Positions 6,193 through 62,237 of a DNA stretch of 64,000 nt are shown here, one piece after another. Both the position numbers and the translations under genes were made by a program. This DNA is from a virus, in IMG/VR virus record IMGVR_UViG_3300027971_000039, positions 21,828-85,827 of that record; one strand, given 5' to 3'. The first letter of the stretch is position 1. The number at the start of each line of letters is the position of its first letter. The notes under the pieces are model-generated. The model saw only the letters and a program-made list of their open reading frames with translations, ran no database searches and was not told where the DNA came from.

Positions 6193-6268
6193 TGGGCAGT
6201 AGCTCAGTTGGTAGAGTGCGCCGCTGTTAACGGCGTGGTCGTAGGTTCGAACCCTACCTGCCCAGCCA
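6193..6268 (+). tRNA. trnN: tRNA-Asn (anticodon GTT) with encoded CCA
   Basis: Acceptor TGGGCAG/CTGCCCA, D arm AGCTCAGTTGGTAGAG, anticodon arm CGCCG-CTGTTAA-CGGCG, T arm GTAGG-TTCGAAC-CCTAC, ends GCCA; 76 nt. Confidence 0.95.
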
Positions 6269-10185: not shown

Positions 10186-10570
10186 ACTAAATTTAAAGTC
10201 AAGATATGAATTAATCGACTATGATTATATTGACAAATTAAAGGAAGAAGAAAAATCCTGGTTAAATAAGTTTACAGAAGAATACGTAAACGCCAGTTTA
10301 GATTCAAAGAATTTAAAAAATAATTTCCACAATACAGACCAATTAAAAAAAGATTGCTACAGAAGAAACAACGCCAGAAATAGAGACATTCTAACTCGGG
10401 CAAAAGCTTCTGGTAGTTATATTAGTACAGATGAATTGCTTTTAAATAAAAAATCAATTAAAATAAATACATCAGATACTTTACTCAATAAAACTAGTAA
10501 TAGCCCGGACAATCTCGAAGAAACCAGCAGCCGAACCGATGACAACAGAAATCAATCCGATGATTTTTAA
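10136..10570 (+). CDS. hypothetical protein
   Basis: 144 aa, last gene of the + strand block. Confidence 0.7.
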   Translation: MAKNKREKTKYPALKPELNLKSRYELIDYDYIDKLKEEEKSWLNKFTEEYVNASLDSKNLKNNFHNTDQLKKDCYRRNNARNRDILTRAKASGSYISTDELLLNKKSIKINTSDTLLNKTSNSPDNLEETSSRTDDNRNQSDDF

Positions 10571-50236: not shown

Positions 50237-52903
50237 TTACGAACGAACATCTTTTAAATACCTTACACGTAGTTTGTCACCAAGTGCAAGTGCTTCTGCT
50301 TCTCCTTGTAACATAGAGCCAGCAAAAGTTAATCTTGTTTTTCCGTTCATGACAGAAACTTCATAATCTTCACCTTCAAGCATCATTAAACGATCAATTG
50401 AGAAAACAATTGACATTGAGAATGCTTTATGGCTAAGTTCAATGTAGTTATTTGCAATAGTTTGTGAAGAAACCATGAAGGAATCAACAGCAAAACGACC
50501 ACCGAAATCATCAGCAAGACTTTCTGCGTATTGTTTTGCTTCCTGTTTAGCAGCAGCAATATAACCAGTGACAGAAGTAGCAAAATTTTCATCATTACCA
50601 AGAGCTTCTGCTAACTCACGAAGAGTATCGAGCATCTCTGGCGCAGAATCAATAACCGCTGCTACTTTTTGATTGGTGTATTCTTTAGATTCAAAAAGAA
50701 CGCGACTGTCTTCAGAAGCACGTAATGCTTCTTCTGCATCAATTTCATATTGAAGTTGAGCTTCACGAGCCATCGCACGAGTTTCTTCTGCAAGAACTTC
50801 AGCGTCGGTGTATACTTTAGATTCAGAAAGAACACGAATATCTTCGCTTGCACGAAGTAGTTCTTCAGCATCAATTTCAGATTGAAGTAAAGCTTCAACA
50901 CCCATTGCTCGTGTTTTTTCAGCATCGGTATAAGTTTTAGCTTCACCAAGAACACGAATATCTTCAGAAGCACGAAGTGTTGCTTCTGCTGAATCAGCGG
51001 CAATACGTGCAGCGGTTTCAGCAGCTTCAGCTGCCATTGCGCGAGTTTTTTCAGCATCAGTGTATGCTTTAGCTTCACCAAGAACTCTTACATCTTCGCT
51101 TGCACGAAGAGCCGCTTCAGCAGCTTCAGCTGCCATCGCACGAGTTTCTTCTGCGTTAACATCAGAAATACGATCTACAATTTCTTGATCTAAGTCAAAT
51201 CGTAATTCTTGTGCATAACCATCTAAATCGTCAAGATCTAGTCTGATTGCAGCATCAGCAGCAGCAAATTCAGAACGAATTGCAGCTTCTTGTGCCATTG
51301 CACGAGCTTTTTCGACATCAGTGTATGCTTTAGCTTCACCAAGAACTCTTACATCTTCAGAAGCACGGAGGAGTTCTTCGGCATCAATTTCAGATTGAAG
51401 CTGGGCTTCACGAGCCATTGCACGAACTTCTTCAGCATCAATTTCGGATTGAAGTTGAGCTTCACGAGCCATCGCACGTGATTCTTCAGCATCAATGTCT
51501 GACTGAAGTCCAGCTTCAGCTGCCATTGCACGAGCTTTTTCAGCGTCGGTGTATGCCATTGCATCAGATTCAGCTTTAGCAATTGACCCTTCACCAGTTC
51601 CTTCTATAACATCTAAACGAGTTTCATGATCGTATAGTTGTGATAAAATTTGTGAGGTTGCAGTTTGATCTGAAGCAATATACTCAGCAATTTCACGAAG
51701 AGTATTATACGCTTCGGGAGCGGCATCAATAACAGACGCAATGCTCATGTCTGTGTATGCTTTAGATTCACTTAATACACGGGCATCTTCAGATTCACGA
51801 GTTAAAGCTTCAGCAGCTTCAGCAGCCATTGCACGAACTTTTTCTTCGTCAGTATATGCTTTAGCTTCACCGAGAACCCGAATGTCTTCAGAAGCACGTA
51901 ATTCTTCTTCTGCATCAATTTCAGATTGAAGTGCTTCTTCTGCAAGCTGTGCTCGGGATTCCTCTGTCCAAATTTGTTCTTGAAGATATTGCTCGGCTGC
52001 CATTGCACGAACTTTTTCTTCGTCAGTATACAATTTAGCTTCACTTAATACACGAATATCTTCAGAAGCGCGAGTTGTAATTTCTTGCTCTATATCAAAA
52101 TGTAATTCGTCAAGACCTAGTCTGATTTCAGCATCAGCAGCTGCAAATTCAGAACGAATTGCCGCTTCTTGCACCATTGCACGATATTCTTCATTAAGAA
52201 CTATTTGATTGGTGTAAGTTTTAGATTCAGATAATACACGAACGTCTTCAGACGCACGAAGTTCTGCTTCAGCAGCTTCAGCTGCCATTGCGCGAGTTTT
52301 TTCTGCGTCAGTATATAATTTAGACTCAGAAAGAACGCGAGCATCTTCAGAAGTTCGAGTTGCAATTTCAGAATCTAGATCATCACGAAGCAATTGATCA
52401 GCAGCTTCTCTAGCTGTTTTTTCAACTAAATCAGCAGCAGCAAAGTCATAACGAATGTCGGCATCTTCCGCAGAACGGATTGCTGCTTCTTCTGAAACTT
52501 TTTCGTCTGTATAATCTTTAGATTCTAGTAAAACCAAAGCATCAGCAGCTGCAAATTCTCCACGAATTGCAGAGTCTGCATCTTCACGAGCAGCTTGTTC
52601 AGCGGCATCAGCGGCTGCACGAGCAAGAGCTTCTGCTGCATCAGCAGCTGCACGAGCAAGAGCTTCTGCTGCATCACCAGCATCAACATAAGATTTTCTT
52701 GCCAATTCATTTGCATGAGTTGGGTCATAAGAAACTCTTGGCATCTCTAGAAGTTGGAATTTATTATCAGAATCTAGTTTAAATAAAGCAGCTTCAGAAC
52801 CATCTACTTTAAGTGCTTTAAATGAATCTTCATTTAAAAATAAGACTTTAGAACCATCTACGCTCTGCGAACGTAAAAACTTCTTTTTGATTTGAATACT
52901 CAT
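50237..52903 (-). CDS. long coiled-coil repeat fibre protein
   Basis: Many RASEDxRVLxE(A/S)KxYTDxEKxRAMAxEA units; two IDxAPExxxTLRE(I/L)A fibre motifs; probable start MSIQIK with GGAG RBS. Confidence 0.75.
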   Translation of the reverse strand: MSIQIKKKFLRSQSVDGSKVLFLNEDSFKALKVDGSEAALFKLDSDNKFQLLEMPRVSYDPTHANELARKSYVDAGDAAEALARAAADAAEALARAAADAAEQAAREDADSAIRGEFAAADALVLLESKDYTDEKVSEEAAIRSAEDADIRYDFAAADLVEKTAREAADQLLRDDLDSEIATRTSEDARVLSESKLYTDAEKTRAMAAEAAEAELRASEDVRVLSESKTYTNQIVLNEEYRAMVQEAAIRSEFAAADAEIRLGLDELHFDIEQEITTRASEDIRVLSEAKLYTDEEKVRAMAAEQYLQEQIWTEESRAQLAEEALQSEIDAEEELRASEDIRVLGEAKAYTDEEKVRAMAAEAAEALTRESEDARVLSESKAYTDMSIASVIDAAPEAYNTLREIAEYIASDQTATSQILSQLYDHETRLDVIEGTGEGSIAKAESDAMAYTDAEKARAMAAEAGLQSDIDAEESRAMAREAQLQSEIDAEEVRAMAREAQLQSEIDAEELLRASEDVRVLGEAKAYTDVEKARAMAQEAAIRSEFAAADAAIRLDLDDLDGYAQELRFDLDQEIVDRISDVNAEETRAMAAEAAEAALRASEDVRVLGEAKAYTDAEKTRAMAAEAAETAARIAADSAEATLRASEDIRVLGEAKTYTDAEKTRAMGVEALLQSEIDAEELLRASEDIRVLSESKVYTDAEVLAEETRAMAREAQLQYEIDAEEALRASEDSRVLFESKEYTNQKVAAVIDSAPEMLDTLRELAEALGNDENFATSVTGYIAAAKQEAKQYAESLADDFGGRFAVDSFMVSSQTIANNYIELSHKAFSMSIVFSIDRLMMLEGEDYEVSVMNGKTRLTFAGSMLQGEAEALALGDKLRVRYLKDVRS

Positions 52904-61124: not shown

Positions 61125-61282
61125 AGAAAGATTTTAGCACTAAATCGAATCGGTTGAATTTAGCCCTCTATTATATACAGGGTAGAACTAAACGGGAATG
61201 GTTTAGGTGGTGTCGAAGACCTTGACAGTGTCGATAAGTTCTACAGGGTGTTTGAATGGTGTGGCATGGGGAAGTCTAATGA

Positions 61283-61316
61283 TATCAGGTATTTAGACGT
61301 TGGCATGGCTGCTGCA
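61283..61316 (+). promoter_or_regulatory. IHF site plus sigma54-type -24/-12 motif
   Basis: TATCAGGTATTTA (61283-61295, WATCARNNNNTTR) then TGGCATGGCTGCTGCA (61301-61316). Confidence 0.6.
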
Positions 61317-61395
61317 GTGATCGGTAGCATGACGATGCAGTCATGGGATAGCACTAGATTCTCTCTCTCTCCTCTAGTGTTAACTCTCTCCTCTC

Positions 61396-61458
61396 TCCCG
61401 AAATACCCCACGGACGGGGTATCGTTGGCGGATGGTTCCCGCTAACCTGACGATGGGA
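61396..61458 (+). ncRNA. type II hammerhead ribozyme 1, predicted cleavage after C61423 (AUC)
   Basis: UCCC-GAAA-UACCCC/GGGGUA-UC-GUUGGCGG/CCGCUAAC-CUGACGA-U-GGGA; loop I GGUU can pair with AACC 61459-61462. Confidence 0.85.
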
Positions 61459-61659
61459 AACCCTTTGCATGAGTTGGTCTTCGTGCATCGTATAAGATAG
61501 ACAAGCGATCGCGTGGCACTATGCCTGACGATTGCGCCGATAGGGTACCATGCTACAGCCTTAACTGGCTATGCTTTAACGCCCTATTGCCCCCGATAAG
61601 ACGGTTACTGGTCCGGGGAATAGCCGATAATAAACGGTAGAAAGTCCGTTGCATCGGAG

Positions 61660-61724
61660 TAGGTTCGAAACAATTCCAGGAATGGAATTGTCGCAAGGAT
61701 TAACCTTGCCTGATGATGAACCTA
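61660..61724 (+). ncRNA. type II hammerhead ribozyme 2, predicted cleavage after C61692 (GUC)
   Basis: UAGGUUC-GAAA-CAAUUCCA/UGGAAUUG-UC-GCAAGG/CCUUGC-CUGAUGA-U-GAACCUA. Confidence 0.92.
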
Positions 61725-61741
61725 AACAAAGAGGATATATC

Positions 61742-61852
61742 ATGAAAAAACAAATTGACGCCATCGAATCCGAACTAAACTCTAATCTCTTTAATTTAAC
61801 TTTAATCGTCTGCGGTGTTTTAATTCTTTACTGCATTAAGTTTTACGCTTAA
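61742..61852 (+). CDS. small membrane protein (36 aa), first gene after the ribozymes
   Basis: AGAGGA RBS then MKKQIDAIESELNSNLFNLTLIVCGVLILYCIKFYA. Confidence 0.6.
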   Translation: MKKQIDAIESELNSNLFNLTLIVCGVLILYCIKFYA

Positions 61853-61871: not shown

Positions 61872-62237
61872 ATGTATATGTCACAAAATACCTTGAAAAT
61901 TAATGTTTCACCACCAATTGAAACAAAATGGGGATTTGATTTAACGTCAATCACTGCTGAAAATTGGGGGAGAGTCCTACAGGCAGTTGGTATAAATAAA
62001 AAACCAAAACATGAAGACGTTATGTGGATTTGGTCCGGGGACGGAATTAAAATTCACACTGGGAATGATCCAATTTCGGGTAAATATGCTCAAGGCCGTA
62101 GAGACGTAGAAAAGGATTATGCCAGCTATATTGGTTTATATGGGGAGAAGGCATTAGTTGAAAAGGCCGCTAAAATTATCCGCGACCTTGCCGACGATAT
62201 TAAGGAAGAAACACCAAACAATAGTGGATTTATATAA
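61872..62237 (+). CDS. hypothetical early protein
   Basis: 121 aa; TAAGGAG RBS. Confidence 0.75.
   Translation: MYMSQNTLKINVSPPIETKWGFDLTSITAENWGRVLQAVGINKKPKHEDVMWIWSGDGIKIHTGNDPISGKYAQGRRDVEKDYASYIGLYGEKALVEKAAKIIRDLADDIKEETPNNSGFI

Follow-up and report, generated by a model that had tools for sequence, protein, structure and literature searches.

Two predicted type II hammerhead ribozymes flank a candidate non-coding RNA gene in the early operon leader of a phage

It is unclear why so many self-cleaving ribozymes are found in phages and bacteria, the best-known idea being that they cut long messages into gene-sized pieces. The element analysed here, at positions 61396-61723 of a 64,000-nucleotide (nt) stretch of freshwater phage DNA (the window), consists of two predicted hammerhead ribozymes and of the folded RNA that lies between them. 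The window corresponds to positions 21828-85827 of the IMG/VR virus record IMGVR_UViG_3300027971_000039, which is 85.8 kb long and complete according to CheckV. The closest described systems are the clustered hammerheads of prophages, where several hammerheads likewise lie on one strand of one transcription unit, an arrangement that points to the cutting up of a long transcript (PMC3088659). The authors of that paper raised the possibility of circular or spliced products, which they report that they could not detect (PMC3088659). These prophage hammerheads excise genes or blocks of genes, whereas the piece delimited here is a conserved folded RNA without a reading frame; similar cases may be listed in the supplement of the paper (PMC3088659). 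Three type II hammerheads have been shown to cleave in Desulfovibrio vulgaris, one of the loci being located near genes of bacteriophage origin (PMC8782182). No description of a hammerhead-flanked non-coding cargo RNA in a phage was found in the open-access literature. The present cassette is a variant of this known arrangement, from which it differs in that a conserved folded RNA takes the place of the gene as cargo.

Flanking ribozymes that free a small RNA with exact ends are known from RGR cassettes, and a ribozyme that fixes the 5' end of the downstream message is known from the RiboJ insulator. Those devices are engineered, with a hammerhead plus a hepatitis delta virus ribozyme or with a satellite-RNA ribozyme, whereas the cassette, which would work in a like manner, is natural and has a type II hammerhead on either side. 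A ribozyme-bounded unit with ends suited to the ligase RtcB is also what retrozymes, viroid-like RNAs and the Tornado system rely on. Unlike retrozymes and viroid-like RNAs, the cassette has no repeats of the same ribozyme, no terminal stem or rod and no ribozyme of opposite polarity. Joining its ends would not rebuild a working ribozyme either, and the unit is embedded in a double-stranded DNA phage.

Our principal reading, to which we give about an even chance of being right, is that positions 61396-61723 constitute a ribozyme-delimited non-coding RNA gene in the leader of an early operon, from which a functional RNA would be released in linear form. The parts of the cassette are the following, in window coordinates.

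61396-61465, + strand: first hammerhead (HH1), type II, found with Rfam RF02276 below its cut-off and with our own descriptor.
61424-61692, + strand: predicted excised RNA, 269 nt between the two cut sites.
61466-61487, + strand: hairpin 1, 8 base pairs (bp), loop UUGGUC.
61505-61535, + strand: hairpin 2, whose 3' strand bears CCUGACGAU, a word shared with the hammerhead cores.
61536-61590, + strand: hairpin 3, long and interrupted, beginning at CCGAUA.
61591-61618, + strand: hairpin 4, CCCCG/CGGGG, a 4-nt AUAA bulge, then GAC/GUC.
61624-61657, + strand: hairpin 5, outer stem CCGAU/AUCGG, inner stem AACGG/CCGUU.
61661-61723, + strand: second hammerhead (HH2), type II, found with our own descriptor and by its compensatory changes.

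Judging from their sequences, HH1 and HH2 look like genuine new members of a known ribozyme class. They share with the type II hammerhead the core CUGANGA, the GAA, the A15.1-U16.1 pair and, as predicted, the cut after C17 (RF02276; PMC3088659). The catalytic core is indeed complete in both (C3 U4 G5 A6 N7 G8 A9, G12 A13 A14, the A15.1-U16.1 pair and a non-G at 17), and it is invariant in the five homologues apart from N7, which is C or U. Both are organised as a three-way junction in which loops close off stems I and III and stem II is open. HH1 can be written CCC-GAA-A(UACCCC..GGGGUA)U-C/G(stem I)CUGACGA-U-GGG, the slash between C and G marking the cut. Its stem II pairs 61397-61399 with 61455-61457 (CCC/GGG), stem III occupies 61403-61422 (AUACCCC/GGGGUAU) and stem I 61424-61446 (GUUGGCGG/CCGCUAAC); the core reads CUGACGA and cleavage is predicted between 61423 and 61424, after C17 = C61423. 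HH2 can be written in the same way as GGUUC-GAA-A(CAAUUCC..GGAAUUG)U-C/G(stem I)CUGAUGA-U-GAACC, with stem II between 61661-61666 and 61718-61723 (GGUUC/GAACC, 5-6 bp), stem III at 61670-61691 (ACAAUUCC/GGAAUUGU), stem I at 61693-61709 (GCAAGG/CCUUGC), the core CUGAUGA and a predicted cut between 61692 and 61693, after C17 = C61692. With the cores read directly, the two cut sites and the 269-nt fragment 61424-61692 are the same as those given by the initial annotation of this DNA. A pseudoknot between loop I and the 3' tail is typical of type II hammerheads (PMC3088659), and HH1 has a candidate for one, between loop I (61434-61438) and the tail (61458-61462), in the form of GGUU(N) with (N)AACC.

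Our own hammerhead descriptor matched both HH1 and HH2 on the + strand and gave no match in any of 20 shuffles of the genome, and a wider version of it gave 53 real matches versus 1 in shuffles over 777 kb of loci. No - strand ribozyme was found by descriptor at the cassette. A broad genome search with RF02276 missed HH1 of the window and, with 50 of 63 loci covered, that of its close relatives, and was disregarded as insensitive. The word (C)CUGAYGAU occurs four times: in the two hammerhead cores (61444-61454 and 61707-61717), in hairpin 2 (61522-61532) and, in a degenerate form, at 61326-61336. The stretch 61322-61337 is 81% alike to positions 61440-61455 of HH1. Both features may be what is left of older hammerhead halves. 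The CUGACGA of hairpin 2 was rejected as the core of a third hammerhead, as neither GAAA nor a stem III lies upstream and a G occupies the would-be cleavage position.

The HH1-RNA-HH2 block is found in five IMG/VR records, the window's own and four others (L002, L003, L004 and L070), and one other study adds contigs from four of its DNA runs (X3-X6), with an identity of 90-95% or below 90%. The five IMG/VR copies were aligned over 336 columns and comprise four distinct sequences, which are 84-91% identical. Over these four, 98.7% of the cells of the 94 proposed pairs are paired, and eight pairs are changed on both sides, a number reached by none of 500 shuffles and reduced to 0-1 when the partners are slid by 1-3 columns. 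Five of the eight lie in the hammerheads, namely one in stem I of HH1 (pair 35-53, from U-A to C-G), two in stem II of HH2 and two in its stem III (pairs 271-331, 273-329, 283-296 and 284-295). Stems II and III of HH1 never vary, and its candidate pseudoknot comprises four invariant pairs and a fifth (47-67) which is C.A in two sequences and A-U in the two others. In the X4 contig, a pair of HH1 stem I carries 61429 C>T together with 61441 G>A.

The three other two-sided pairs belong to the interior. The pair 167-178 of the inner stem of hairpin 3 goes from G-C to A-U in L070, and two pairs of hairpin 4 are changed in L002 (203-224, from C-G to G-C, and 210-221, from A-U to G-C). The basal pair A61540-U61587 of hairpin 3 is lost in the relatives, where it is replaced by A.G or A.A. 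Hairpin 5 shows one one-sided change in the alignment, and in X3, X5 and X6 contigs the changes 61626 G>A and 61655 C>T fall on the two sides of one pair of its outer stem. Covariation appears suggestive for hairpins 3-5 and is silent for hairpins 1 and 2. Substitutions in the interior are also unevenly distributed, since 13 of 104 paired columns vary (12.5%) versus 30 of 93 unpaired columns (32%; Fisher p = 0.001). Several stems contain G.U pairs which, together with the better fold of the + strand than of the - strand, fit an RNA made from the + strand. Only one gap, of 1 nt, is seen in the whole cassette alignment, the cut-to-cut distance being 269, 268, 269, 269 and 269 nt in the five copies.

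The excised RNA is predicted to carry a 5'-OH and a 2',3'-cyclic phosphate. Of HH1 it would keep the 3' two-thirds and of HH2 the 5' half, on either side of an interior of about 200 nt, and its termini are an 8-bp 5' hairpin (HH1 stem I) and a 7-8-bp 3' hairpin (HH2 stem III) followed by one C. The minimum-free-energy fold of the 269 nt contains five hairpins, at coordinates that agree within 2 nt with those proposed initially, and RNAalifold applied to the five homologues gives hairpins 1-4 in full and only the inner stem of hairpin 5. The stability of the 269-nt fold (z = -3.77) was equalled by 0 of 200 shuffles; on the opposite strand, the interior taken alone (z -1.19) folds no better than shuffles. 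The word CCGATA (CCGAUA in the RNA) does occur in the last three hairpins, as had been noticed, at 61537, 61593 and 61624, all on the + strand, which makes a local cluster; over both strands of the whole window there are 27 matches versus 13.6 expected. The three words are invariant in the relatives except for one C-to-G change in L002, which is itself half of a compensatory pair. An alternative pairing of CUAUU with AAUAG, also put forward at that stage, is not confirmed, only three of its five pairs surviving in the three distinct relatives (L002, L003 and L070).

The absence of an open reading frame (ORF) led by a ribosome-binding site, already stated in the initial annotation, extends to the relatives: stops are present in all three + frames of the cassette in five copies out of five, and the sole ATG-led ORF (61521-61640) has lost its ATG in L002, L003 and L004. 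In another viral contig (L088), a hammerhead pair flanks a real small gene, with an ATG-led frame between cuts 176 and 546; the non-coding cargo of the present cassette is therefore a real difference and not a search artefact. No Rfam family is catalogued for the cargo RNA, the search being negative even at E<=10. Readings of the CCGAUAA hairpins as a k-turn, a CRISPR-repeat mimic or a tetraloop-receptor motif were rejected, since their sequence does not fit these motifs and Rfam gave no such match at E<=10. Two perfect complements, candidate antisense targets, were put down to chance. One, of 15 nt, lies in the ribonucleotide reductase gene (genome 9874-9888; RNA positions 202-216) and the other, of 14 nt, at window 52710-52723 (RNA positions 41-54). 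The estimated numbers of chance matches are about 0.04 and 0.17, respectively, both targets are unconserved as DNA in the records of the relatives, and the RNA differs at that site in all of them.

The proposed mechanism is as follows. Transcription from a conserved upstream element would run through HH1, the folded RNA and HH2, and each type II hammerhead would cut itself in vivo. In a type II hammerhead, loops close off stems I and III, so that each cleavage product would have a hairpin at its start or its end. The upstream product would end in a stem III hairpin and the downstream product would begin with a stem I hairpin, while the 269-nt RNA would start with the HH1 stem I hairpin, bearing the 5'-OH, and finish with the HH2 stem III hairpin, bearing the 2',3'-cyclic phosphate. 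Hairpin-closed ends should slow decay by 5'-end-dependent RNases (RNase E, RNase J) as well as by 3' exonucleases. With ends that are such poor substrates for nucleases, the linear RNA could persist without ligation, and it would presumably act in trans. Cleavage by HH2 would also place a defined, hairpin-capped 5' terminus on the early mRNA, 49 nt ahead of the first start codon. As to the function of the RNA, we can offer a weak guess, which is that of a protein-binding RNA (sponge or decoy), the three conserved CCGAUA-headed hairpins being its repeated sites. The roles suggested in the initial annotation (decoy, anti-defence or antitermination RNA) are guesses as well.

The elements which would start and receive this processing are listed below.

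61301-61317, + strand: candidate promoter of the cassette, a conserved TGGCAT-N5-(C/T)(T/A)GCA element kept in relatives.
61360-61396, + strand: pyrimidine-only (CU) tract, which abuts HH1 on its 5' side in each of the five copies.
61693-61852, + strand: predicted 3' cleavage product, with the 5' hairpin GCAAGG/CCUUGC, an AGAGGA ribosome-binding site and a 36-amino-acid (aa) ORF (ATG at 61742), then the early genes.

The upstream element may also be written TGGCATGG-N-(T/A)GCA (region 61299-61345). Its GG-N10-GC spacing is sigma-54-like, and we take it to resemble a sigma-54 -24/-12 site. DNA similarity to L002, L003 and L004 starts at about 61299, that is, at this element, which is also present ahead of the cassette in L070 and in loose ends of the run X3 contigs. 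A sigma-70 scan of the + strand between 60967 and 61826 gave no site. The CU tract is retained even where the sequence farther upstream is replaced, as it is by an ORF in L070, and it is complementary to Shine-Dalgarno-like words such as the AGAGGA at 61729. Its region shows a pile-up of many short high-depth contigs in runs X3-X6. As a side observation, a gene-free stretch of an unrelated viral contig (L071 2514-2600, - strand) contains three spaced ACCCGATAAGGT-like words, which may be operator repeats unrelated to the cassette.

The cassette lies on the + strand of a 957-nt divergent gap between two gene arms, right before the first + strand gene. Structural genes, among them those of the terminase and the portal, occupy the - strand of the window up to 60784. 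On the + strand, a long series of mostly small genes, including ribonucleotide reductase, starts at 61742 and continues past the end of the record to about window position 10570; its layout suggests that this block consists of early-type genes. The 36-aa ORF is followed by the gene of a 121-aa protein without family match, then by GP88 (PF17338) and WYL_2 (PF10902). A tRNA gene at 6193-6265 (RF00005, 68.5 bits) is the sole above-threshold Rfam match in the window.

The surroundings of the block are mosaic. In L070, an ORF of about 63 codons lies between the upstream element and HH1, and HH2 is followed by a different small ORF, without GP88. About 180 extra nt follow HH2 in L003 and L004, a 254-nt insert lies between 61342 and 61391 in the X6 contig, and a 470-nt insert between 61731 and 61742 in the X3 contig. 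The 121-aa gene (61872-62237) shares only its first 13-14 codons with L002 and L070 and has no match in L003, the rest being replaced, which points to a swapping of genes within the early operon next to an RNA cassette that is kept. Among the insertions seen in relatives and contigs, none falls inside the HH1-RNA-HH2 block. Such a pattern of changes just outside the block and none inside would fit selection on the block as a whole; the border changes would also fit block edges that act as recombination joints.

Searches farther afield gave no other relatives. Exact and gapped patterns of the interior recovered only the same four other IMG/VR records, four extra matches being unrelated. The 121-aa protein has relatives at four loci, which have coding sequence upstream and no cassette, and blastn of the region against the INPHARED phages gave no match. 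An interior 18-mer had two matches in a metagenome scan and one in a GTDB scan, which were rejected as chance, being alike over 21-24 nt only. This 18-mer would also miss relatives such as the X4 contig, because that contig differs inside it (61548 C>A).

Several points weigh against the reading of the cassette as a gene for a released RNA. Unlike the members of RF02276, both hammerheads stay below the gathering score and have an extra U after A9, and HH2 is without a convincing pseudoknot. HH1 scores 31.7 bits (E 3.2e-4) where the gathering score is 37, and HH2 gives no match to Rfam even at E<=10. The extra U is a single one in both, placed between A9 and stem II, and for the loop I-tail pseudoknot of HH2 only 3-nt matches are possible, with no covariation. 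The same extra U is present in two unrelated phage type II hammerheads (L080 and L081), and De la Pena and Flores reportedly found in 2001 that a viroid hammerhead tolerates one more nucleotide of the core after A9. At the gathering score, Rfam also reports no hammerhead in 12 other loci, some of which hold descriptor-complete hammerheads, and the RF02276 threshold therefore appears strict for this kind of hammerhead. On the side of the RNA, the alignment offers only four distinct sequences, and no compensatory change is seen in hairpin 1 (helix 5: five invariant pairs, two one-sided changes, one broken cell) or in hairpin 2 (helix 6: nine invariant pairs, two one-sided changes, one broken cell). 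The stability of the 202-nt interior folded alone is modest (z -2.25, equalled by 5 of 200 shuffles). The cassette family is narrow and so far confined to one small phage clade, and a covariance model of the interior, run on 100 sources (797 kb), retrieved only the window itself, with four others at E 1.7-2.9. The six listed sequencing runs that hold the stretch are all DNA, and no pointer to a partner protein or to a target of the RNA was found.

These points have to be read together with the other explanations of the locus. The hammerheads could serve as punctuation only, trimming the transcript to leave a stable 3' end upstream and a stable 5' end on the early mRNA, while the interior would be an inert or cis-acting spacer or leader. 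Such an interior might aid the independent folding of the two ribozymes or act on the transcribing polymerase, and it would be degraded after release without any role in trans. It is indeed common for a hammerhead to lie 30-50 nt ahead of a phage gene start, 24 other viral contigs having one that shares the stem I word of HH2, and a paper of 2011 described hammerhead clusters around genes (PMC3088659). In L070 and in the X6 contig, HH1 comes after an ORF or after the 254-nt insert of similar length, which suggests that it also ends that message. To set an mRNA end, however, a single ribozyme would suffice. Nor would one expect a mere spacer to hold its length to within one 1-nt gap in 336 columns, or to show compensatory pairs, which hairpins 3, 4 and 5 have, or the lower variability of paired columns (12.5% versus 32%). 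We regard punctuation alone as a rather unlikely explanation. It would be very improbable, in our view, that no discrete RNA is made at all, the cassette consisting of inactive relics or of hairpins that work at the DNA level, for instance as an origin, as a packaging site or as a linker for recombination between gene modules. The two borders of the block are where insertions and replacements of genes concentrate, as they would at such a linker, and both hammerheads are under the Rfam cut-off. Yet the compensatory changes preserve the hammerhead stems and 11 core positions are fixed, many of the pairs are G.U and would be A.C mismatches on the other strand, and the - strand folds no better than its shuffles.

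The initial annotation had put forward a possibly circular product. The ends would be joined by a host RtcB-type ligase, or by reversal of the hammerhead reaction, into a 269-nt circle that a defective chimeric hammerhead could not re-open. The chemistry is suitable, since a 5'-OH and a cyclic phosphate are what RtcB joins, and the terminal hairpins could be neighbours, since they correspond to stems I and III of a hammerhead junction. The prediction of a poor stem II in the chimera formed at the ligation junction also stands on inspection by eye, GGUUC facing UGGGAAACC with no register that includes the core-adjacent pair. We nevertheless consider the circle improbable. There is no conserved helix to bring the ends together, only a pairing of 4-5 bp with a probability of 0.2-0.5 in three of four homologues and a different one in the fourth, and in all four the computed circular fold falls short of the linear one in stability by 2.8-5.3 kcal/mol. 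HH1 and HH2 are not mutual repeats, the longest direct repeat in 61250-61800 being of 16 nt with 81% identity, and the locus has no - strand ribozyme. The RtcB (PF01139) and Rnl2 (PF09414) families were not found in the phage record; a search for PF09511 (Rnl1) gave no match in it, nor in any control genome. A host ligase could still close the RNA. For the clustered phage hammerheads, the absence of circular products was reported as data not shown (PMC3088659). If the 269-nt RNA described here were circular after all, there would be, to our knowledge, which is based on a limited literature search, no earlier natural example from a DNA phage.

Ribozymes were also seen in other loci, and these observations stand beside the cassette in their own right. 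In 24 viral contigs (L082-L105), hammerheads that are mostly of type III by eye have in common with HH2 the stem I word GCAAGG/CCUUGC. They are placed 30-50 nt upstream of a ribosome-binding site and a start codon, and none of those tested reached the Rfam gathering score. Two of these contigs (L088 171-3861 and L099 4248-7938) carry, all on the same strand, four type III hammerheads with spacings of 370, 1133 and 2137 nt; a single small gene lies between the first two, as in a classical "punctuated operon". In L087 (505-574, - strand), a pistol ribozyme (RF02679, 67.3 bits) is found about 400 nt downstream of a hammerhead of the same strand. Type I hammerheads lie between small genes and upstream of distant GP88 homologues in three further loci (L051 2924-2981, L052 2927-2983 and L064 3896-3953), so that ribozymes near the GP88 family appear to recur in unrelated forms.

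A broader reading, which is possible but doubtful, is that freshwater phages carry ribozyme-delimited RNA genes as a class, giving conserved, folded and nuclease-resistant RNAs of about 270-290 nt, cut from the early transcript by two ribozymes and either linear with capped ends or made circular by host RtcB, which would act in trans on a protein of the host or the phage through repeated hairpin modules, here the three headed by CCGAUA. If true, it would assign a definite task to the tandem ribozymes of phages, not well explained since 2011. In the present case the piece to be cut out is a conserved folded non-coding RNA, and on the simplest reading the ribozymes would serve to process the transcript of an RNA gene. 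The cassette, self-contained and short (about 330 nt), would offer a practical starting point for work on what tandem phage ribozymes do as well as on a new phage RNA.

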